Origin: Escherichia coli
GTDB lineage: Bacteria; Pseudomonadota; Gammaproteobacteria; Enterobacterales; Enterobacteriaceae
NCBI RefSeq assembly: GCF_030013205.1
Contig: NZ_CP122648.1
Length of the DNA stretch: 64,000 nt
Reading direction: 5' to 3' (one strand)
In this document: piece after piece, positions 1,429-60,267 of the stretch
How positions within the stretch are numbered: the first letter of the stretch is position 1
Layout: each line of letters begins with the position of its first letter
The notes under the pieces: generated by a model
What the model was told of the DNA's origin: nothing
Databases searched by the model: none
The model's input: only the letters and a program-made list of their open reading frames with translations
Made by a program: the position numbers and the translations under genes

Positions 1429-1444
1429 TTGATTAGCGGATAAT

Positions 1445-1474
1445 AAAAAACCGGAGCACAGACTCCGGTTTTTT
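1445..1474. terminator. bidirectional intrinsic terminator after mdh
   Basis: perfect hairpin ccggagcacagactccgg flanked by A6 and T6 runs immediately after the mdh stop. Confidence 0.7.
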
Positions 1475-1477
1475 GTT

Positions 1478-2150
1478 GTGCACAGAAAACCCCCAGCTAG
1501 GCTGGGGGTTCCGGAAAGCTTTCAGCTTTGAGCCAGTTATTAAAACCCCTTTTGATTTGTTAAAACACCTTGCGGTCTGGCAACTGCAAGTGTCAAACAA
1601 GAAATCAAAAGGGGGTCCCAATGGGGAACGAAAAGAGCTTAGCGCACACCCGATGGAACTGTAAATATCACATAGTTTTTGCGCCAAAATACCGAAGACA
1701 GGTGTTCTACAGAGAGAAGCGTAGAGCAATAGGCAGTATTTTGAGAAAGCTGTGTGAGTGGAAAAGCGTACGGATTCTGGAAGCTGAATGCTGTGCAGAT
1801 CATATCCATATGCTTGTGGAGATCCCGCCCAAAATGAGCGTATCCGGGTTTATGGGATATCTGAAAGGGAAAAGCAGTCTGATGCTTTACGAGCAGTTTG
1901 GTGATTTGAAATTCAAATACAGGAACAGGGAGTTCTGGTGCAGAGGGTACTACGTCGATACAGTGGGTAAGAACACGGCGAAGATACAGGATTACATAAA
2001 GCACCAGCTTGAAGAGGATAAAATGGGAGAGCAGTTATCGATTCCCTATCCGGGCAGCCCGTTTACGGGCCGTAAGTAACGAAGTTGGATGCAAATGTCA
2101 GATCGTGTGCGCCTGTTAGGGCGCGGCTGGTAAGAGAGCCTTATAGGCGC
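1478..2150 (+). mobile_element. IS200-like insertion sequence (IS200/IS605 family); boundaries approximate
   Basis: carries a 152-aa Y1/HUH transposase ORF; perfect hairpin aaacccccagctaggctgggggtt near the left side; sits between two convergent-gene terminators; exact ends not determinable without a reference. Confidence 0.6.
1621..2079 (+). CDS. tnpA: IS200-type transposase TnpA (HUH/Y1 family)
   Basis: 152 aa from internal ATG of track ORF 1570..2079: MGNEKSLAHTRWNCKYHIVFAPKYRR... with HIH motif (ADHIHMLVEIPP); near-identical to IS200 TnpA as I recall it. Confidence 0.9.
   Translation: MGNEKSLAHTRWNCKYHIVFAPKYRRQVFYREKRRAIGSILRKLCEWKSVRILEAECCADHIHMLVEIPPKMSVSGFMGYLKGKSSLMLYEQFGDLKFKYRNREFWCRGYYVDTVGKNTAKIQDYIKHQLEEDKMGEQLSIPYPGSPFTGRK

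Positions 2151-15120: not shown

Positions 15121-15124
<4 letters not shown>
14435..15124 (+). CDS. nanE: N-acetylmannosamine-6-phosphate 2-epimerase
   Basis: 229 aa from [23 protein letters not shown]. Confidence 0.95.
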
Positions 15125-16457
<1,333 letters not shown>

Positions 16458-17629: not shown

Positions 17630-17812
17630 TATCTGTCCCTTAATATGGCGCAGTGTTGAATAATGGAATCAGCTATACGCCGGGCATCTGCCGGTAACAA
17701 TCCAGATGTGCGTATTACATTGGTTTTCTTCAGATTATGCGAGGCGCTTTCCAGAACGAAAGGAGAATTTCAGCGCCGACTCTTTTCTGAGGAGGCGGCG
17801 CTGGGACAGAGC

Positions 17813-27740: not shown

Positions 27741-27853
27741 CCCCGGCTAGACCGGGGTGCGCGAATACTGCGCCAACACCAGGGAAATCTTGGCTGCGCC
27801 GTAAATTATTATGATGAGTTACAAGGGCACAGCACTGTTTTTCAGGCCGCACG
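27733..27853 (-). ncRNA. arcZ: small regulatory RNA ArcZ
   Basis: minus-strand sequence gtgcggcctgaaaaacagtgctgtgccc...ccccggtctagccggggtcatttttt matches ArcZ as I recall it; its terminator overlaps the arcB stop codon. Confidence 0.85.
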
Positions 27854-27969: not shown

Positions 27970-28623
27970 ATGAAGAAAATTGGCGTAATTCTGAGCGGAT
28001 GCGGCGTCTATGACGGTTCTGAAATTCATGAAGCGGTGTTGACGTTGTTAGCTATTTCACGCAGCGGTGCGCAGGCGGTCTGCTTTGCACCGGATAAGCA
28101 GCAGGTTGATGTTATCAACCATTTAACGGGCGAAGCGATGACGGAAACGCGCAATGTGCTGATTGAAGCGGCACGAATAACGCGCGGTGAAATCCGTCCT
28201 CTGGCCCAGGCCGATGCCGCTGAACTGGATGCGTTGATTGTGCCGGGGGGGTTTGGCGCGGCGAAGAATTTAAGCAATTTTGCCAGTCTTGGTAGCGAAT
28301 GCACCGTTGACCGTGAATTAAAGGCGCTGGCACAAGCGATGCATCAGGCCGGAAAACCGCTTGGTTTTATGTGTATTGCCCCGGCGATGCTGCCGAAAAT
28401 TTTCGATTTCCCGCTGCGTTTGACCATCGGTACTGATATCGATACCGCAGAAGTGCTGGAAGAGATGGGCGCGGAGCATGTGCCGTGTCCTGTCGATGAT
28501 ATCGTGGTTGATGAAGACAATAAGATTGTCACCACCCCGGCATATATGCTGGCGCAGAACATTGCAGAAGCGGCGAGCGGCATTGATAAGCTGGTTTCCC
28601 GCGTGCTGGTCCTGGCGGAATGA
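27970..28623 (+). CDS. elbB: DJ-1/PfpI-family protein ElbB
   Basis: 217 aa from [23 protein letters not shown]. Confidence 0.93.
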
Positions 28624-29348
28624 GTAAAAGCCGCTTAACGGTGTTTAGTTTCATTCGCCGTTTTCTTCTGCGGTTAATGGTTGTCCTCGCCGTTTTCTGG
28701 GGCGGGGGCATTGCGTTGTTTAGCGTTGCGCCTGTTCCTTTCTCTGCGGTAATGGTCGAGCGGCAAGTCAGCGCCTGGCTGCATGGCAATTTTCGTTACG
28801 TGGCACATTCTGACTGGGTCAACATGGATCAAATCTCGCCGTGGATGGGACTGGCGGTGATTGCCGCAGAAGATCAGAAGTTTCCTGAGCACTGGGGCTT
28901 TGATGTCGCTTCCATTGAGCAAGCCCTGGCGCACAACGAACGCAATGAAAACCGTATTCGCGGTGCGTCGACGATTTCTCAGCAGACAGCCAAAAATCTC
29001 TTTTTATGGGATGGGCGCAGCTGGGTTCGAAAAGGGCTGGAAGCCGGATTAACGCTGGGGATAGAAACTGTCTGGAGCAAAAAGCGTATCCTGACGGTTT
29101 ACCTGAATATCGCCGAATTTGGCGACGGTGTGTTTGGCGTCGAAGCTGCGGCACAACGTTATTTCCACAAACCCGCGAGCAAACTTACCCGCTCGGAAGC
29201 TGCATTACTGGCTGCTGTATTACCTAATCCACTTCGTTTCAAAGTCTCCGCGCCATCGGGCTACGTGCGTAGCCGTCAGGCGTGGATTTTACGGCAGATG
29301 TATCAGTTAGGCGGTGAGTCGTTTATGCAACAGCACCAGCTGGATTAA
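28620..29348 (+). CDS. mtgA: monofunctional peptidoglycan glycosyltransferase
   Basis: 242 aa [29 protein letters not shown]...; start overlaps the elbB stop. Confidence 0.95.
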
Positions 29349-30189: not shown

Positions 30190-30462
30190 TTAATCTTCAT
30201 CAAAACCAGAGTTAAAGAGGGCGATAACGGCGGCCAGTGCTTCCTCTTCCTGTGGACCGGTCGCTTCAACTTCAATCTGCCGTCCTTTGGCAGAATCCAA
30301 CATCAGCAGCGCAATAACGCTGTTGGCTTCAGCCTCGGTGCCTTCGTCATTACGTAACAGCACTTCAGCGTCAAAACCCTGCATTAATTCAAACAGCTTC
30401 ATTGCAGGCCGGGCATGCATGCCCAGCTTGTTTGTGATTTCAACAGTTTGCTTGACGGTCAT
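30190..30462 (-). CDS. ptsO: nitrogen-PTS phosphocarrier NPr
   Basis: 90 aa [24 protein letters not shown]...; HPr-like with active-site His. Confidence 0.95.
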
Positions 30463-32277: not shown

Positions 32278-33711
32278 TCAAACGAGCTGTTTACGCTGGT
32301 TTGACGGCGGAATGGATAAAGACTCTCGGTACTTCGCAACAGTGCGGCGTGCCACCATGATACCTTGTTCCGACAGCAAAGAGGTTAACTTGCTGTCGCT
32401 CAATGGTTTCGCTGGGTTTTCCGCCGCGATTAATTTCTTCACCAGCGCACGAATCGCCGTGGAGGAAGCTTCGCCGCCGCCCTCGGTATTGACGTGACTG
32501 GAAAAGAAATACTTCAGTTCAAAAATGCCTCGTGGACTATGCAGGTATTTTTGCGTGGTCACGCGAGATATCGTCGATTCATGCATTTCGACAGCCTGGG
32601 CGATATCGGCCAGTACCATCGGTTTCATATATTCTTCACCTTGCTCAAAGAAGGCTTGCTGCTGTTCAACGATACAGCGACTCACGCGCAGTAGCGTATC
32701 GTTACGGCTTTCCAGACTCTTGATCAACCATTTGGCATCCTGCAGATTGCTGCGGATAAACTGGCTATCACCATCGTTGCGCGCGTTATTGCACATCGAG
32801 GCGTAGTGCTGGTTGATTTGCAGACGCGGAATGCTGTCACTGTTGAGTTCTACCGTCCAGTGACCGTTATGCTTACGCACCAGCACATCTGGAATGACAT
32901 ACTCAGGTTCGCCCGTCTGGATCGACTGCCCGGGGCGCGGATCGAGCGACTGGATCAGATTGACGGCTTCTTTCAGCACATCTTCTTTCAGACGCGTGAC
33001 GCGCATTAAAGTGCGGAAGTCGTGATTGGCTAACAGATCGAGATGATCGCTAATAATCAGTCTGGCCTCTTCCAGCCACGGCGTGGTTTTATCGAATTGG
33101 GAGAGTTGGATCAGCAGGCAGTCACGCAGATCTTTTGCCGCCACACCGACCGGATCAAACCGTTGGATCCGCTTAAGGACGGCTTCAACTTCGTCGATGT
33201 CGATCTCTTCATCGCCCATACTTTCGAGAATATCTTCCAGCGGGACAGTCAGATAACCGGTGTCATCAACGGCATCGACGATAGAGGTAGCAATGGCGCG
33301 GTCAGTATCGGAAAACGGTGTCAGCTCGACCTGCCACATCAGGTAATCCTGCAAGGTCTGCGTCGTTTCGCCCTGATAGACCGGCAGCTCGTCGTCAATG
33401 TAGTCACCGCTGGTGCCGGATGGTGTACCAGCGGTGTAAATGGTGTCCCAACTGGCATCGAGCGGCAGCTCTTCCGGCATCTCTTTTTGTTCGAGCGCGT
33501 CGGCGGTGTCCAGCGTTTCACTGTCTTGCGTTTCGCGGGTGTCGATTTCTTCATGAGTGTCGATTTGCTCAAGCAGCGGATTACTCTCCAGCGCCTGCTG
33601 TAGCTCCTGCTGAAGTTCCAGCGTCGACAACTGCAACAGACGAATTGCCTGTTGGAGCTGTGGCGTCATCGCCAGTTGTTGGCTAAGCCTGAGTTGCAAA
33701 CCTTGCTTCAT
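32278..33711 (-). CDS. rpoN: RNA polymerase sigma-54 factor
   Basis: 477 aa [33 protein letters not shown]...; C-terminal RpoN box ARRTVAKYR. Confidence 0.97.
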
Positions 33712-33758: not shown

Positions 33759-34484
33759 TCAGAGTCTGAAGTCTTCCCCAAGGTATACACGCTTAACGTG
33801 TTCGTCTTGTAAGATTTCCGTAGGCGTGCCGTGGGCGATCAAATGCCCCTGACTGACGATATAAGCGCGTTCACAAACCGCCAGTGTTTCACGCACGTTG
33901 TGGTCAGTGATCAGTACGCCCAGGCCGCTGTCGCGCAGGTGCTCAATGATGCGTTTAATGTCGATAACCGAGATCGGGTCAACCCCGGCAAACGGTTCGT
34001 CGAGCAGAATAAATTTCGGATTCGCAGCCAGTGCGCGGGCAATTTCTACACGGCGACGTTCACCCCCGGAGAGTGACTGCCCCATGCTGTCACGCAGGTG
34101 CTCAATGTGAAACTCTTCCATCAGCTCGTTCGCGCGGTCTTCACGTTGTTCAGCAGACAAGTCGTCACGAATTTGCAGTACCGCCATCAGGTTATCGTAA
34201 ACGCTGAGGCGACGGAAAATGGAGGCTTCCTGTGGCAGATAGCCGATACCGCGGCGCGCGCGTGCATGCAGAGGCAGCAGACTGATATCGTCATCATCAA
34301 TAATGATGTTGCCCGCATCGCGCGGCACAATGCCTACAACCATGTAGAAAGTGGTGGTCTTACCGGCACCGTTTGGCCCCAGCAGACCGACAATTTCCCC
34401 GGAGTTGACGGTCAGGCTGACGTCTTCTACCACGCGACGGCCTTTATAGGCTTTTGCAAGGTTCTTTGCAGTTAATGTTGCCAT
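33759..34484 (-). CDS. lptB: LPS export ABC transporter ATPase LptB
   Basis: 241 aa [24 protein letters not shown]...; Walker [10 protein letters not shown]. Confidence 0.96.
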
Positions 34485-34490
34485 AACGAA

Positions 34491-35048
34491 TTAATTACCC
34501 TTCTTCTGTGCCGGGGTCTGGCCTTTGTTGTTTTTGTCCTGCAGCTGCGACGGCACCAGAACGGTGGTTACGCGCTTACCTTTGTCGCTGAAAGCCTGCA
34601 TTTTCTGCTCTTTCACCAGGTAAGTGATCTTATCGCCCTTAATGTTGCTATCGACCTGCTGCAGATAAGCATTACCCGTCAGAACGACAAAATCTTTTGC
34701 CAGTTCGTAGTGCATCTGGGAAGCGTGACCTTCAACGGGTTTACCATTGTCCTGCATCTGGTAGAACGTTGCCGGTTTACCGTAGCCGTCAATCACTTCT
34801 TTACCTTGTTCGCCGCCCGGACGGGTAACGACCACTTTGTCGGCATTAATTTTGATGGTGCCCTGGGTGACGATGACATTACCGGTAAAGGTAACCACGT
34901 TGCCTTGCATATCAAGAGATTGCTGGTCCGATTCAATGTGGATCGGCTGATCAGTGTCTCCGGTTACGGCAAATGCCGGAATGCTGGCGGCCAGAAGTGA
35001 GCTGGCAAGCACAAGATTAAGGCTGAGTTTGTTTGTTTTGAATTTCAT
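34491..35048 (-). CDS. lptA: LPS transport periplasmic protein LptA
   Basis: 185 aa from MKFKTNKLSLNLVLASSLLAASIPAFA (signal peptide). Confidence 0.95.
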   Translation of the reverse strand: MKFKTNKLSLNLVLASSLLAASIPAFAVTGDTDQPIHIESDQQSLDMQGNVVTFTGNVIVTQGTIKINADKVVVTRPGGEQGKEVIDGYGKPATFYQMQDNGKPVEGHASQMHYELAKDFVVLTGNAYLQQVDSNIKGDKITYLVKEQKMQAFSDKGKRVTTVLVPSQLQDKNNKGQTPAQKKGN

Positions 35049-35592
35049 AGGATGTTCTAACCTTTTCAATCAGCTCGGCGTTCTTGCTGCGTAAGTTGCC
35101 GCGCATTTTCAGACCGCTGGAGTTAAATGTTGTTCCGTATAACGTGACGAGGTCTTCAGAGGTAACATCCTGCGTCACCAGATTGATCTGCGCGTTATCC
35201 GTCGTGATTCTGCGAAGTTGAGAGTCCGGCACAAGTGCGTTGACTTCAACGTGTCCATATAAATAGAGCATCCGGTCATTGGTCAGCTTGGCTTTATCTG
35301 CTTTTACGGACCATGTCGGGATTTTATCCTTATCAAACGTGGTAAGTACCGGCTGCGTAAACCACGAAACGGCCTGATCGGAATAATATTCAACATGTTG
35401 AGCAATCAATCGATAGCTTAGTGCCCCTTCTGGGTTATAGACGAGCGTGTCCGTATGCTCGCTTTTATAGGTGGGATCATTGTTGTTGACGACCACCTGG
35501 GCGGTATCGTCTTTTTCGGCCATATTAATGCCGATCATCACCAGAACCGCCAGTGATAGCACAATGATAACCCAACGTCTGGCTTTACTCAT
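35017..35592 (-). CDS. lptC: LPS export system protein LptC
   Basis: 191 aa MSKARRWVIIVLSLAVLVMIGINMAEKDD...; 3' end overlaps the lptA start by about 32 nt. Confidence 0.95.
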   Translation of the reverse strand: MSKARRWVIIVLSLAVLVMIGINMAEKDDTAQVVVNNNDPTYKSEHTDTLVYNPEGALSYRLIAQHVEYYSDQAVSWFTQPVLTTFDKDKIPTWSVKADKAKLTNDRMLYLYGHVEVNALVPDSQLRRITTDNAQINLVTQDVTSEDLVTLYGTTFNSSGLKMRGNLRSKNAELIEKVRTSYEIQNKQTQP

Positions 35593-36155
35593 ATCGATTG
35601 CCCTTTGGCTTCATCCAGTTTGCCCTGCGCCAGGAGTAATAAGTCGCAAACTTCACGCACTGCACCACGACCGCCAGCAATGCGCGTCACGTAATCGGCG
35701 CGCGGGAGCAACAGTGGATGCGCATCGGCCACGGCGACGCTTAAACCCACTTTTTCCATTACCGGCCAGTCGATGAGATCATCGCCGACATAAGCCACAT
35801 TTTCCGGGGCAATCGCCAGTTTTTCCAGCAAATCGCTAAAGGCGATCAGTTTGTTTGACTGCCCCTGATACAAGTGAGTGATCCCCAATGTGGCACAACG
35901 ATCTTCTACCAGTTTAGCCTTTCGCCCGGTAATGATAGCGACTTCAATATCAGAGGTGAGCGCACAACGAATGCCATAACCGTCACGAACATTGAACGCT
36001 TTCAGCTCTTCGCCATTATTGCCCATATAAATCAGGCCATCTGACAGTACGCCATCGACATCGAGGATCAGCAGACGAATGTTCTCTGCTTTTGCTATAA
36101 CGTCGGCGCTGACAGGGCCGTAACAGGTCGCAAGCGACGCACCTGCTTTGCTCAT
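35589..36155 (-). CDS. kdsC: KDO-8-phosphate phosphatase
   Basis: 188 aa MSKAGASLATCYGPVSADVIAKAENIRLLILDVDGVL (HAD motif). Confidence 0.95.
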   Translation of the reverse strand: MSKAGASLATCYGPVSADVIAKAENIRLLILDVDGVLSDGLIYMGNNGEELKAFNVRDGYGIRCALTSDIEVAIITGRKAKLVEDRCATLGITHLYQGQSNKLIAFSDLLEKLAIAPENVAYVGDDLIDWPVMEKVGLSVAVADAHPLLLPRADYVTRIAGGRGAVREVCDLLLLAQGKLDEAKGQSI

Positions 36156-36175: not shown

Positions 36176-37162
36176 TTACACTACGCCTGCACGCAGTAAA
36201 TCATGCATATGTAACACACCGAGTAAATGGTCGCCATCGGCAACCATCACGGAGGTGATATGGCGGGACTGCATTAAGTTCAGTGCCTCAACGGCCAGAA
36301 TGCCAGGGCGCACGCGTATTCCCCCCGGCGTCATAACATCGGCAATACTTAACTGACGAACATCCACGCCCATATCGAAGACACGGCGTAAATCACCGTC
36401 GGTAAAGATGCCTTCAATCATCATATTGTCATCGCAAATGACAGTCATACCAAGATTTTTGCGGGTAACTTCCAGCAATGCGTCACGCAGACTGGCCGTT
36501 TTCTTAACATGCGGGATCTCATCGCCCGTATGCATAATATCGTTTACGCGCAGCAGAAGTTTACGACCCAGTGCGCCGCCTGGATGTGAGAGCGCAAAAT
36601 CTTCGGCAGTAAAGCCGCGTGCTTTTAACAGCGCGACAGCGAGGGCATCGCCCATAACCAGCGTGGCGGTGGTGCTGCTGGTCGGTGCCAGCCCTAACGG
36701 ACAGGCTTCTTTCGCTACTTTAACACACAGATGAACATCTGCGGCGCGCGCCATGCTGCTCTCCGGGCGACCGGTGATGCAGATTAACGGTACGTGAAGA
36801 CGCTTAAGCACTGGAATTAAGGCCGTGATTTCGCTGGATTCACCTGAGTTAGAGATAGCAATCACCACATCCTGTGGGGTGACCATGCCTAAATCACCAT
36901 GCGCGGCTTCACCAGGATGGACGAAAAATGAAGGTGTACCGGTGCTGGCAAACGTTGCCGCCATTTTGCGCCCAATATGCCCCGATTTCCCCATCCCCAT
37001 GACGACAACTTTCCCTTTACACCAGAACATCTTTTCACAGGCAAGCGTGAAATTCTGATTGATGTATTGATCAAGCTCCGCCAGGCATTCACGTTCAATC
37101 GCCAGGACTTCTTTACCTGCTTGCTGAAAGTCAAAACCCGGTTGTAACTCTACGTGCGACAT
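36176..37162 (-). CDS. kdsD: D-arabinose-5-phosphate isomerase
   Basis: 328 aa from MSHVELQPGFDFQQAGKEVL; SIS domain plus tandem CBS. Confidence 0.95.
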   Translation of the reverse strand: MSHVELQPGFDFQQAGKEVLAIERECLAELDQYINQNFTLACEKMFWCKGKVVVMGMGKSGHIGRKMAATFASTGTPSFFVHPGEAAHGDLGMVTPQDVVIAISNSGESSEITALIPVLKRLHVPLICITGRPESSMARAADVHLCVKVAKEACPLGLAPTSSTTATLVMGDALAVALLKARGFTAEDFALSHPGGALGRKLLLRVNDIMHTGDEIPHVKKTASLRDALLEVTRKNLGMTVICDDNMMIEGIFTDGDLRRVFDMGVDVRQLSIADVMTPGGIRVRPGILAVEALNLMQSRHITSVMVADGDHLLGVLHMHDLLRAGVV

Positions 37163-37175
37163 AATGCGTTTCCAG

Positions 37176-38153
37176 TTATTCAACGAGTATTGGCGATAAC
37201 CAGTACAACATCGCCAGCCATACGATAAATCCGCCAGTTAATAATACCCCTACACCACGGCCCGATTGCGGGGAGCGCCGCCAGCACAGCAACGCAAAAA
37301 TAATGCTCACCAGCAACATCACGCTGTAGTCACGACTGTACGCCAGTGGATCAATCTCTCCTGGCGTTATCAGCGCGGGTAAACCCAACACGATGACAAT
37401 ATTAAAAATGTTTGCGCCAATGATATTTCCGACAGCAATGTCGTTTTCACCTTTGCGAACCCCCGCTATTGCGGTTGCCAGTTCCGGCAGGCTGGTTCCG
37501 ATAGCAATTGCCGTCAGCCCCATCGTCAACTCGCTGATGGCAAAGTAATTCGCCAGCACCGTGGCGTTATCAACCACCATCCGCGTGGCCACTGGCATGA
37601 TGATAAGCGCAATGCCGAGCCATAAAAACGCGACGGGCAATCCACCTTCACGCGGCAGCTCTGCAAGCTGCTCTCTGGTCAGACTGTCAGTCCCCTGACG
37701 TTCAGCCTGACGTGCAAGTTTAACAATGAACAGCAGCCATAGCACAGCCAGAAAGAGGAGAAAGATACCATCGCTGCGACTAAGTTGTCCGTCATAGAGT
37801 ACGGAACCGGCCACCACGCTGACCAACAACATTAAGGGTAATTCACGGCGTAGAACATCAGAATGGACGGTAAAAGGACGAACCAGCGCAGCCAGACCGA
37901 GGATCAGCAATATATTGATAATGTTTGAGCCGAGGGCTGTACCAACGGCTAAATCGCGTTGTTCGTGCAGAGACGCGGCAAGCGAGACGATGATTTCTGG
38001 TAACGATGTACCAATACTGACCACCGTCATGCCGATGATCAGCGGCGGGATGCCAAAGGTTCGGCAAAGAATAGACGCGGCAAAAACCAGGCGGTCGGCA
38101 CTGTAAACGACCAAAAGTAAACCAACAATTAACAGTGCCGTAGCTAAAAGCAT
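37176..38153 (-). CDS. yrbG: CaCA-family cation antiporter YrbG
   Basis: 325 aa polytopic membrane protein MLLATALLIVGLLLVVYSADRL... with duplicated GTSLPE motifs. Confidence 0.92.
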   Translation of the reverse strand: MLLATALLIVGLLLVVYSADRLVFAASILCRTFGIPPLIIGMTVVSIGTSLPEIIVSLAASLHEQRDLAVGTALGSNIINILLILGLAALVRPFTVHSDVLRRELPLMLLVSVVAGSVLYDGQLSRSDGIFLLFLAVLWLLFIVKLARQAERQGTDSLTREQLAELPREGGLPVAFLWLGIALIIMPVATRMVVDNATVLANYFAISELTMGLTAIAIGTSLPELATAIAGVRKGENDIAVGNIIGANIFNIVIVLGLPALITPGEIDPLAYSRDYSVMLLVSIIFALLCWRRSPQSGRGVGVLLTGGFIVWLAMLYWLSPILVE

Positions 38154-47846: not shown

Positions 47847-47852
47847 TCAGCA

Positions 47853-47877
47853 AAACCCCGGCCATGTGCCGGGGTTT
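47853..47877. terminator. bidirectional terminator between obgE and dacB
   Basis: aaaaccccggccatgtgccggggttt hairpin between convergent genes. Confidence 0.7.
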
Positions 47878-47886
47878 CTCTTTAGA

Positions 47887-49320: not shown

Positions 49321-49435
49321 AATCTCGCGCTAACAACCTGGAATCGAGCCGTCATACTACGGCGCAACGCCCTATAAAGTAAACGATGACCCTTCGGGAA
49401 CTTCAGGGTAAAATGACTATCAAAATGTGAATTGT

Positions 49436-49476
49436 AGCTGACCTGGGACTTGTACCCGGGTCGGTATTTTTTTGCT
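49436..49476 (+). promoter_or_regulatory. greA leader terminator/attenuator (GraL-like)
   Basis: hairpin gacctgggacttgtacccgggtc followed by T7 run about 90 bp upstream of the greA ATG; consistent with the known greA leader RNA. Confidence 0.5.
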
Positions 49477-51347: not shown

Positions 51348-53282
51348 ATGGCGAAAAACCTAATACTCTGGCTGGTCATTGCCGTTGTGCTGATGTCAGT
51401 ATTCCAGAGCTTTGGGCCCAGCGAGTCTAATGGCCGTAAGGTGGATTACTCTACCTTCCTACAAGAGGTCAATAACGACCAGGTTCGTGAAGCGCGTATC
51501 AACGGACGTGAAATCAACGTTACCAAGAAAGATAGTAACCGTTATACCACTTACATTCCGGTTCAGGATCCGAAATTACTGGATAACCTGTTGACCAAGA
51601 ACGTCAAGGTTGTCGGTGAACCGCCTGAAGAACCAAGCCTGCTGGCTTCTATCTTCATCTCCTGGTTCCCGATGCTGTTGCTGATTGGTGTCTGGATCTT
51701 CTTCATGCGTCAAATGCAGGGCGGCGGTGGCAAAGGTGCCATGTCGTTTGGTAAGAGCAAAGCGCGCATGCTGACGGAAGATCAGATCAAAACGACCTTT
51801 GCTGACGTTGCGGGCTGCGACGAAGCAAAAGAAGAAGTTGCTGAACTGGTTGAGTATCTGCGCGAGCCGAGCCGCTTCCAGAAACTCGGCGGTAAGATCC
51901 CGAAAGGCGTCCTGATGGTCGGTCCTCCGGGTACCGGTAAAACGCTGCTGGCGAAAGCGATTGCAGGCGAAGCGAAAGTTCCGTTCTTTACTATCTCCGG
52001 TTCTGACTTCGTCGAAATGTTCGTCGGTGTGGGTGCATCCCGTGTTCGTGACATGTTCGAACAGGCGAAGAAAGCGGCACCGTGTATCATCTTTATCGAT
52101 GAAATCGACGCCGTAGGCCGCCAGCGTGGCGCAGGCCTGGGCGGTGGTCACGATGAACGTGAACAGACTCTGAACCAGATGCTGGTTGAGATGGATGGCT
52201 TCGAAGGTAACGAAGGTATCATCGTTATCGCCGCGACTAACCGTCCGGACGTTCTCGACCCGGCGCTGCTGCGTCCTGGCCGTTTCGACCGTCAGGTTGT
52301 GGTTGGTTTGCCAGATGTTCGCGGTCGTGAGCAGATCCTGAAAGTTCACATGCGTCGCGTACCATTGGCACCCGATATCGACGCGGCAATCATTGCCCGT
52401 GGTACTCCTGGTTTCTCCGGTGCTGACCTGGCGAACCTGGTGAACGAAGCGGCACTGTTCGCTGCTCGTGGCAACAAACGCGTTGTGTCGATGGTTGAAT
52501 TCGAGAAAGCGAAAGACAAAATCATGATGGGTGCGGAACGTCGCTCCATGGTGATGACGGAAGCGCAGAAAGAATCGACGGCTTACCACGAAGCGGGTCA
52601 CGCGATTATCGGTCGCCTGGTGCCGGAACACGATCCGGTGCACAAAGTGACGATTATCCCACGCGGTCGTGCGCTGGGTGTGACTTTCTTCTTGCCTGAG
52701 GGCGACGCAATCAGCGCCAGCCGTCAGAAACTGGAAAGCCAGATTTCTACGCTGTACGGTGGTCGTCTGGCAGAAGAGATCATCTACGGGCCGGAACATG
52801 TTTCTACCGGTGCGTCCAACGATATTAAAGTTGCGACCAACCTGGCACGTAACATGGTGACTCAGTGGGGCTTCTCTGAGAAATTGGGTCCACTGCTGTA
52901 CGCGGAAGAAGAAGGTGAAGTGTTCCTCGGCCGTAGCGTAGCGAAAGCGAAACATATGTCTGATGAAACTGCACGTATCATCGACCAGGAAGTGAAAGCA
53001 CTGATTGAGCGTAACTATAATCGTGCGCGTCAGCTTCTGACCGACAATATGGATATTCTGCATGCGATGAAAGATGCTCTCATGAAATATGAGACTATCG
53101 ACGCACCGCAGATTGATGACCTGATGGCACGTCGCGATGTACGTCCGCCAGCGGGCTGGGAAGAACCAGGCGCTTCTAACAATTCTGGCGACAATGGTAG
53201 TCCAAAGGCTCCACGTCCGGTTGATGAACCGCGTACGCCGAACCCGGGTAACACCATGTCAGAGCAGTTAGGCGACAAGTAA
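51348..53282 (+). CDS. ftsH: ATP-dependent zinc metalloprotease FtsH
   Basis: 644 aa from [20 protein letters not shown] (ATG three codons inside the TTG-initiated track ORF); Walker A GPPGTGKT and HEAGH zinc motif. Confidence 0.96.
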
Positions 53283-53313
53283 GTTCCCGCATCAGATGAC
53301 TGTATTTGTACCG

Positions 53314-53371: not shown

Positions 53372-54220
53372 ATGAAACTCTTTGCCCAGGGCACTTCACT
53401 GGACCTTAGCCATCCTCACGTAATGGGGATCCTCAACGTCACGCCTGATTCCTTTTCGGATGGCGGCACGCATAACTCGCTGATAGATGCGGTGAAACAT
53501 GCGAATCTGATGATCAACGCTGGCGCGACGATCATTGACGTTGGTGGCGAGTCCACGCGCCCAGGAGCGGCGGAAGTTAGCGTTGAAGAAGAGTTGCAAC
53601 GTGTTATTCCTGTGGTTGAGGCAATTGCTCAACGCTTCGAAGTCTGGATCTCGGTCGATACATCCAAACCAGAAGTCATCCGTGAGTCAGCGAAAGTTGG
53701 CGCTCACATTATTAACGATATCCGCTCCCTTTCCGAACCAGGGGCTCTGGAGGCAGCTGCAGAAACCGGTTTACCGGTTTGTCTGATGCATATGCAGGGA
53801 AATCCAAAGACCATGCAGGAAGCCCCGAAGTATGACGATGTCTTTGCAGAAGTGAATCGCTATTTTATTGAGCAAATAGCACGTTGCGAGCAGGCGGGTA
53901 TCGCAAAAGAGAAATTGTTGCTCGACCCCGGATTCGGTTTCGGTAAAAATCTCTCCCATAACTATTCATTACTGGCGCGCCTGGCTGAATTTCACCATTT
54001 CAACCTGCCGCTGTTGGTGGGTATGTCACGAAAATCGATGATTGGGCAGCTGCTGAACGTGGGGCCGTCCGAGCGTCTGAGCGGTAGTCTGGCTTGTGCG
54101 GTCATTGCCGCTATGCAAGGCGCGCATATCATTCGTGTTCATGACGTCAAAGAAACCGTAGAAGCGATGCGGGTGGTGGAAGCCACTCTGTCTGCAAAGG
54201 AAAACAAACGCTATGAGTAA
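53372..54220 (+). CDS. folP: dihydropteroate synthase
   Basis: 282 aa from [32 protein letters not shown] (internal ATG). Confidence 0.96.
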
Positions 54221-59991: not shown

Positions 59992-60068
<77 letters not shown>

Positions 60069-60182
60069 CTTTAGTCCTTTTTCAAATATACTGTGAAGAC
60101 TTCGGCCTTCGTAGTGGGATTTGAAAAAATCCTTCTGGAAAGTGCTCCAGACCGCAGTTGCGGTTATAGGGTTCAGTTATAT

Positions 60183-60210
60183 AAAGCCCCGATTTATCGG
60201 GGTTTTTTGT
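60183..60210 (+). terminator. intrinsic terminator/attenuator after metY
   Basis: aaagccccgatttatcggggttttttg. Confidence 0.7.
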
Positions 60211-60267
60211 TATCTGACTACAGAATAACTGGGCTTTAGGCCCTTTTTTTATGTCTTGGGGGTGGGC

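Follow-up and report, generated by a model that had tools for sequence, protein, structure and literature searches.

Gene overlaps in the window, the whole 64,000-nucleotide stretch of Escherichia coli DNA analysed here, are very probably (about 0.8) ordinary operon-internal overlaps identical to those of the curated K-12 gene models, with short stop/start junctions at which translation is re-initiated in part, and with lptA, whose start lies inside lptC, reached by two routes. At the short junctions, a ribosome ending the upstream gene would sit on or beside the downstream AUG, and downstream translation would probably be supplied partly by termination-reinitiation. On the long transcript from the yrbG promoter, ribosomes translating lptC would cross the lptA start, reach their stop 32 nt beyond it, and may aid initiation at the weak lptA Shine-Dalgarno (SD) sequence, either by re-initiating upstream or by keeping the site open. 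Promoters embedded in lptC, one of them sigma-E-dependent, would in addition give lptAB transcripts on which, as published, lptA initiates alone. The overlap itself would be shared between two segments under low constraint, i.e., the flexible LptC C terminus and the n-region of the cleaved LptA signal peptide.

The window is a piece of E. coli chromosome that differs from strain EC556 (NZ_AP027440.1) by 5 mismatches in 50 kb, and the 5,501 bases around the kdsC-lptC locus have a match in 5,425 of 5,426 complete E. coli genomes. When the annotation of EC556 is carried over, all 59 CDS give intact ORFs, which bears out the statement of an earlier note on this DNA that the operons are intact. yrbG, kdsD, kdsC, lptC, lptA and lptB follow one another in this order on a single strand, each with an intact ORF, as in the yrbG-lptB (LPS transport / KDO) operon; the span 35017-36155, to which the earlier note had drawn attention, corresponds to lptC plus kdsC. 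Gene order, protein lengths, and the 4-nt and 32-nt overlaps are identical in the E. coli K-12 locus yrbG-kdsD-kdsC-lptC-lptA-lptB (b3196-b3201), which belongs to another strain and lies in reverse orientation—hence the minus strand of the lpt genes here—with no relevant difference. More generally, a comparison with the curated starts of K-12 MG1655, proposed in the earlier note as a check, returned identical overlaps for 7/7 pairs. A search of the kdsC-lptA region against Rfam found no RNA family.

Table 1. Positions in the window of the genes, gene overlaps and sequence elements discussed in the text.
Feature	Position	Strand	Description
lptC/lptA overlap	35017-35048	minus	32 nt; encodes LptC Y182-P191 plus stop and LptA M1-N11
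kdsC stop/lptC start overlap	35589-35592	minus	ATGA, 4 nt; read from the sequence; local nucleotide-entropy minimum
rapZ stop/npr start overlap	30459-30462	minus	ATGA, 4 nt; K-12 coordinates agree
nanE stop/nanK start overlap	15121-15124	plus	ATGA, 4 nt; K-12 coordinates agree
nanK stop/nanQ (yhcH) start overlap	15993-15996	plus	ATGA, 4 nt; followed by two further in-frame ATGs
elbB stop/mtgA start overlap	28620-28623	plus	ATGA, 4 nt; K-12 coordinates agree
folP/glmM overlap	54213-54220	plus	8 nt, ATGAGTAA; K-12 coordinates agree
mlaC/mlaB overlap	41172	plus	1 nt, TAATG; sequence and K-12 coordinates
AAGG, weak Shine-Dalgarno-like	35061-35064	minus	12 nt upstream of the lptA ATG; anti-SD duplex -3.4 kcal/mol
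Sigma-E-type motif GGAACAA-N16-TCTGA	35109-35136	minus	inside lptC; pattern match; predicted start near 35102
kdsC	35589-36155	minus	188 aa; intact ORF; PGAP annotation in EC556; K-12 b3198 of equal length
lptC	35017-35592	minus	191 aa; intact ORF; in EC556 and K-12 annotation; homologues with Pfam PF06835
lptA	34491-35048	minus	185 aa; signal peptide MKFKTNKLSLNLVLASSLLAASIPAFA; intact ORF; in EC556 and K-12 annotation
lptB	33759-34484	minus	intact ORF; 6 nt past the lptA stop
yrbG	37176-38153	minus	
kdsD	36176-37162	minus	
rpoN	32278-33711	minus	

The lptC/lptA overlap, put at about 32 nt in the earlier note, is exactly 32 nt in the sequence, and the AUG of lptA sits within the Tyr182-Glu183 codons of lptC. 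The earlier note had also called the overlaps expected for these operons and not novel, and this is right: the K-12 annotation agrees, and the 32-nt overlap has been stated in print by Benedet et al. (PMC4986956). Of 5,425 complete E. coli genomes, 5,420 carry the 161-nt stretch spanning the junction at 99% identity or more. A broader sample was drawn from a scan with LptB, with one genome per species and the best 80 loci kept, all of them from Enterobacteriaceae; in the 79 species of this sample, among the best 80 loci, LptC identity goes down to 74%. Among the same best 80 loci, the overlap is 32 nt in 77/79 species and 20 nt in the other 2/79, via an earlier lptC stop (TAA), and lptA and lptB are separated by 6 nt in 80/80 species.

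Beyond this sample, a word-index search with the LptA protein matched close relatives only (at least 82% identity), and distant taxa were reached through LptA homologues at 36-53% identity in a 50%-identity representative library, followed by contig look-ups. The starts in these loci are gene-caller predictions, and the presence of an overlap is more secure than its precise length: lptC and lptA share 26 nt in Pantoea sp. Aalb, 20 nt in Grimontia, 8 nt in Candidatus Providencia siddallii, 29 nt in Aeromonas (14 nt with the NCBI 175-aa start), 44 nt on a further distant contig (17 nt with a nearer ATG), and 14 nt on another. These distant overlaps are always 2 mod 3 in length and therefore, like the others, keep lptC and lptA in the same frame relationship, with the lptA ATG embedded in two codons of the LptC tail that read Tyr-Glu or Asn-Glu. 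On an AT-rich symbiont-like contig lptC is truncated and a 21-nt gap replaces the overlap, and in Serratia symbiotica the lptC/lptA locus is rearranged. On these comparisons of sequence, the overlap is best described as old, phase-locked dual coding. It is affordable because the shared 32 nt encode two tolerant protein segments; residues 185-191 of LptC are disordered in the crystal structure (PMC2963376).

The imprint of this arrangement can be seen at the nucleotide level. Across 73 aligned loci, the two deepest minima of nucleotide entropy are the kdsC/lptC junction and the last ~120 nt of lptC. Third-codon-position entropy is ~1.2 over most of lptC (~1.0-1.2 elsewhere), and then 0.73, 0.54, 0.26 and 0.40 in codons 151-160, 161-170, 171-180 and 181-190, respectively, while in codons 1-10 of lptA it is 0.04. 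Synonymous variation is thus suppressed in both frames across the overlap, as characterises dual coding, and the three frequent substitutions found there are synonymous in lptC, their sole effect on protein being in the signal peptide of LptA (F>S, K>R, T>I). The suppression starts ~90 nt before the overlap, and dual coding alone is therefore insufficient as an explanation; embedded promoters, a ribosome-binding site and a second reading frame would together make the last ~40 codons of lptC the most nucleotide-conserved of the region.

A sigma-E-type motif, GGAACAA-N16-TCTGA, falls in this zone of suppressed synonymous change, as does GAAAAGGTTAGAAC with the weak lptA SD. The sigma-E pattern taken alone is weak: 0.45 occurrences are expected in the window and 2 are present. 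The TCTGA element of the motif is also the -10 sequence of degP and rpoH P3. The whole motif closely resembles GGAACTT-N16-TCAAA, the sigma-E consensus of Rhodius et al. Two minor promoters, lptAp1 and lptAp2, have been reported within lptC upstream of lptA, the first requiring sigma-E (PMC4986956), and the motif is likely the published lptAp1, positioned here from the pattern match. A simple sigma-70 scan of lptC gave no match. A RegulonDB-derived table lists an lptB leader of 549 nt (PMC5230787 Table S3), which, converted between K-12 sequence versions, places a transcription start near 35032, i.e., inside the overlap and 16 nt past the lptA ATG, in conflict with the motif in lptC; near this point there is a poor sigma-E-like match, AGAACAT-N15-ACAAA. 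A transcript starting at 35032 would yield an lptB-only message. The comparison among species argues strongly that the lptA start is nonetheless correct.

The shorter junctions present a similar picture of agreement with known models. Four-nucleotide overlaps of ATGA or TGATG type had been claimed for five pairs; all five are present and all are ATGA, whereas the TGATG type is found in none. The claimed 8-nt folP/glmM overlap is likewise in the sequence and equal in K-12. nanQ begins ATGATGATG and may start at any of three adjacent ATGs, for an overlap of 4 nt, 1 nt or none; the second would give a 1-nt junction of TGATG type. Two further overlaps, absent from the earlier list, are the 1-nt overlap of mlaC and mlaB and a 4-nt convergent overlap of mtgA and yrbL (29345-29348).

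The window has 43 pairs of co-directional neighbours; overlaps are present in 8 of these, and in 5 the spacing is exactly -4, against 0.15 expected (P about 4e-7, under a crude uniform null). The overlap pattern is not due to chance, given this excess and the retention of the junctions across species: among the best 80 Enterobacteriaceae loci, the ATGA of kdsC/lptC is kept in 76/78 and that of rapZ/npr in 72/72. The gene pairs of the rpoN and nan operons presumably lie on one transcript. The genes from yrbG to lptB share a transcript according to published work (PMC4986956), and spacings of -4 and -1 are by far the commonest motifs between co-directional prokaryotic genes (PMC12548453); the five ATGA overlaps, together with mlaC/mlaB at 1 nt and folP/glmM at 8 nt, fall in the commonest co-directional spacing classes. 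The -4 or -1 co-directional geometry of coupled pairs is found in the window at five ATGA junctions and one TAATG junction, all in known operons, and resembles that of the ATGA/TGATG termination-reinitiation pairs described by Huber et al. 2019 (PMC6728339) and in PMC12548453. Unlike those pairs, the present ones are known from sequence geometry, and nanK and nanQ, with strong SDs, may not depend on coupling. Translational coupling at the ATGA junctions, as the earlier note suggested, is a reasonable reading of this geometry, and for the ATGA, TAATG and 8-nt junctions termination-reinitiation is the usual account.

For lptA, coupling cannot be obligatory and would be at most partial. When lptC is untranscribed, under depletion, lptAB are still expressed, at a lower level, from the promoter inside lptC (PMC8727689; PMC4986956), and coupling to lptC is not required because LptA and LptB are made from this internal promoter without lptC transcription. 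Coupling efficiency drops as the distance between stop and start grows, according to a 2025 review (PMC12548453), and 32 nt is far for reinitiation. The closest parallel is with phage MS2 coat/lysis constructs, in which the start lies about 38 nt upstream of the stop (PMC12548453), similar to the -32 of lptC/lptA; in MS2, however, coupling has been shown experimentally, whereas for lptC/lptA it is only possible, and lptA has promoters of its own. A search of the literature on these pairs found no coupling experiment.

The strongest rival holds that there is no coupling, lptA and perhaps the other downstream genes initiating only independently, each at its own ribosome-binding site, and the overlaps being neutral, frozen by-products of genome compaction that are difficult to reverse when one sequence serves two frames; we consider it unlikely, while giving it some weight. 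Consistent with it, LptA arises from internal-promoter transcripts without lptC translation, and the 131 nt around the lptA start, when folded, show no significant structure (z = -0.74), leaving the start unmasked. A structure-masked lptA start was dropped as a candidate on this value, and the RNA-unfolding form of coupling is unsupported because the start region is not unusually structured. Independent initiation would also suit the strong anti-SD pairing that nanK and nanQ have of their own, the variation of the lptC/lptA overlap in distant taxa with its loss through a truncated lptC in a symbiont-like lineage, and the view that the -4 motif is common partly through easy evolution (PMC12548453). 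It sits less well with the initiation signals of the other genes: the anti-SD pairing of lptA is among the weakest in the window (its AAGG is held in GAAAAGGTTAGAAC, nearly invariant across species), that of npr and mlaB is also weak (-3.3 kcal/mol), and the best pairing of mtgA (-4.8 kcal/mol) ends 0 nt before the start codon, an unusable placement. Such weak or badly placed SDs fit a reliance on the upstream ribosome, and those of npr, mlaB and mtgA are compatible with termination-reinitiation. Furthermore, ATGA junctions are invariant over about 75 species, whereas nearby kdsD and kdsC, which do not overlap, are set apart by a spacer that drifts from 13 to 31 nt in Enterobacteriaceae (among the best 80 loci), and tight coupling has been reported for other E. 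coli -4/-1 pairs (PMC6728339; PMC10666635).

A more speculative proposal, which we regard as rather improbable, takes the lptC/lptA overlap not as a passive remnant but as an ancient device that would tie LptA to LptC output on the main transcript via reinitiation 8 to 32 nt upstream, with the sigma-E promoter uncoupling the two under LPS stress. On this reading a single frame relationship, with the AUG always in a Tyr/Asn-Glu pair, would be fixed over at least Enterobacterales, Vibrionales and Aeromonadales.

Negative coupling by occlusion, in which ribosomes on the last 11 codons of lptC would cover the lptA start and limit LptA relative to LptC, is highly unlikely. It is suggested by geometry alone, the lptA start region lying within translated lptC over 32 nt, and a weak SD would heighten sensitivity to such competition; arabinose-driven transcription of lptCAB, however, raises LptA alongside LptC (PMC8727689), which strong occlusion would not predict, although the observation is confounded by transcription level.

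That the overlaps are annotation artefacts, the true downstream starts lying further 3', is scarcely credible: a possible misannotation of the ORF beside yhbG is raised by Rhodius et al., a transcription start is listed inside lptA, and nanQ has tandem ATGs, but the curated K-12 models are the same as those of PGAP, and for lptA and npr this reading has largely been refuted already. The earlier note had named alternative downstream starts as what would overturn its overlaps, and for lptA this alternative is refuted: of the candidate start codons, the annotated ATG alone is conserved, in 80/80 species among the best 80 loci. In the same set of best 80 loci, the next in-frame start, at codon 13, occurs in 24/80 Enterobacteriaceae and would remove the basic n-region of the signal peptide, 18/80 species lack any further in-frame start over 40 codons, and for 13 species the next start lies past the signal-peptide cleavage site. 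The annotated start, on the other hand, gives a textbook signal peptide, whose basic n-region (MK[FS][KR]xNK) is followed by a hydrophobic core and Ala-x-Ala. On the upstream side, an in-frame TTG at 35069 (53-nt overlap) was rejected: it has no SD, and no comparable upstream in-frame start stands beside the lptA ATG in Grimontia, Pantoea sp. Aalb or the other distant taxa examined. Alternative starts of lptC, glmM, nanK and npr would remove at least 10 N-terminal residues, the cost for glmM, nanK and lptC being 10 to more than 40. For npr, an N-terminal peptide of NPr begins at residue 2 of the annotated start in a supplementary table of bacterial N-terminomics (PMC13245402), in agreement with that start; a search of INRI-seq supplements for these genes gave no match.

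The overlaps are ordinary operon architecture, already published and in curated annotation, and are no discovery; their value is mainly one of quality control, as they confirm correct gene models and intact operons in the window. For work on LPS transport, one point of some use concerns engineering: tagging, deleting or recoding the lptC 3' end alters at the same time the start codon and signal peptide of lptA, the weak site at which ribosomes bind to it, and what is likely a sigma-E promoter. Across about 75 species, no other part of the locus is as conserved in nucleotide sequence as this end.

In the other species compared, exceptions to the overlaps fall at both junctions of the kdsC-lptC-lptA set. 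At the kdsC/lptC junction, the kdsC frame of Citrobacter koseri NCTC10786 (locus L022) stops 132 nt short of the lptC start, leaving no overlap, and possible causes of this early end are a frameshift, a premature stop codon and an error in the assembly. The lptC/lptA overlap is lost in two reduced, symbiont-like genomes (loci L085 and L092), in one of which lptC is shortened to 159 aa, with a 21-nt gap to lptA and the AAAAGGTTAAAAC motif retained. The gene order in Serratia symbiotica, a member of this pair, is lptC-lptB-lptA.

Elsewhere in the window, three ATG codons in tandem open nanQ (yhcH; 15993-16001), so that the nanK/nanQ overlap may be 4 nt, 1 nt or none, according to which of the three is used; Shine-Dalgarno spacing favours the first. 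The convergent genes mtgA (+) and yrbL (-) share 4 nt (29345-29348), here as in K-12.

A RegulonDB-derived table (PMC5230787 Table S3) gives lptB a leader of 549 nt, which places a transcription start at about 35032, inside the lptC/lptA overlap and 16 nt past the lptA ATG. This listed start disagrees with the good sigma-E-type motif GGAACAA-N16-TCTGA at 35109-35136 (-), the proposed lptAp1. A second sigma-E-like candidate, GCAACTT-N18-GCTGA, would begin a transcript some 15 nt before the lptA ATG and could be either lptAp2, a published promoter within lptC, or a chance match. The pattern GGAAC-N17-19-TCTRA is matched twice in the window (0.45 matches expected), and the only match besides the motif at 35109-35136, antisense to ftsH, is probably due to chance. 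The Rfam scan of the window recovered, besides the RNAs tabulated below, two tRNAs, and gave no RNA family match within the kdsC-lptA region.

Promoter candidates, structured RNAs and strain-specific features in the window
Feature	Position	Strand	Basis or remark
IS200C element	1433-2140		between mdh and degS
STnc490 RNA family match	1488-1611		Rfam; leader of IS200C element
tnpA of IS200C element	1621-2079
gltD / yhcG-like PDDEXK gene junction	17630-17812		PDDEXK gene directly after gltD
ArcZ sRNA	27745-27852	-	Rfam, expected
GCAACTT-N18-GCTGA	35070-35099	-	pattern match
greA leader	49351-49472	+	Rfam, expected
GGAAC-N17-19-TCTRA	53259-53287	-	over ftsH 3' end
rimP leader	60150-60250	+	Rfam, expected

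The window also differs from the reference strains in gene content and spacing. In contrast to the IS200C insertion seen here, mdh and degS are just 62 nt apart in K-12, and the K-12 block gltF-yhcA-yhcD-yhcE(IS5)-yhcF, of about 7 kb, is missing in this strain. Divergence from EC556, the strain whose annotation was transferred, begins at 60073, just past a tRNA-Met gene (59992-60065), and the net length difference between the two is 7 bp, ahead of rimP. Finally, the gap between cgtA (obgE) and dacB measures 40 nt in the window (47847-47886) but 185 nt in K-12, so that K-12 has an additional element some 145 nt long, which may be of the REP type.
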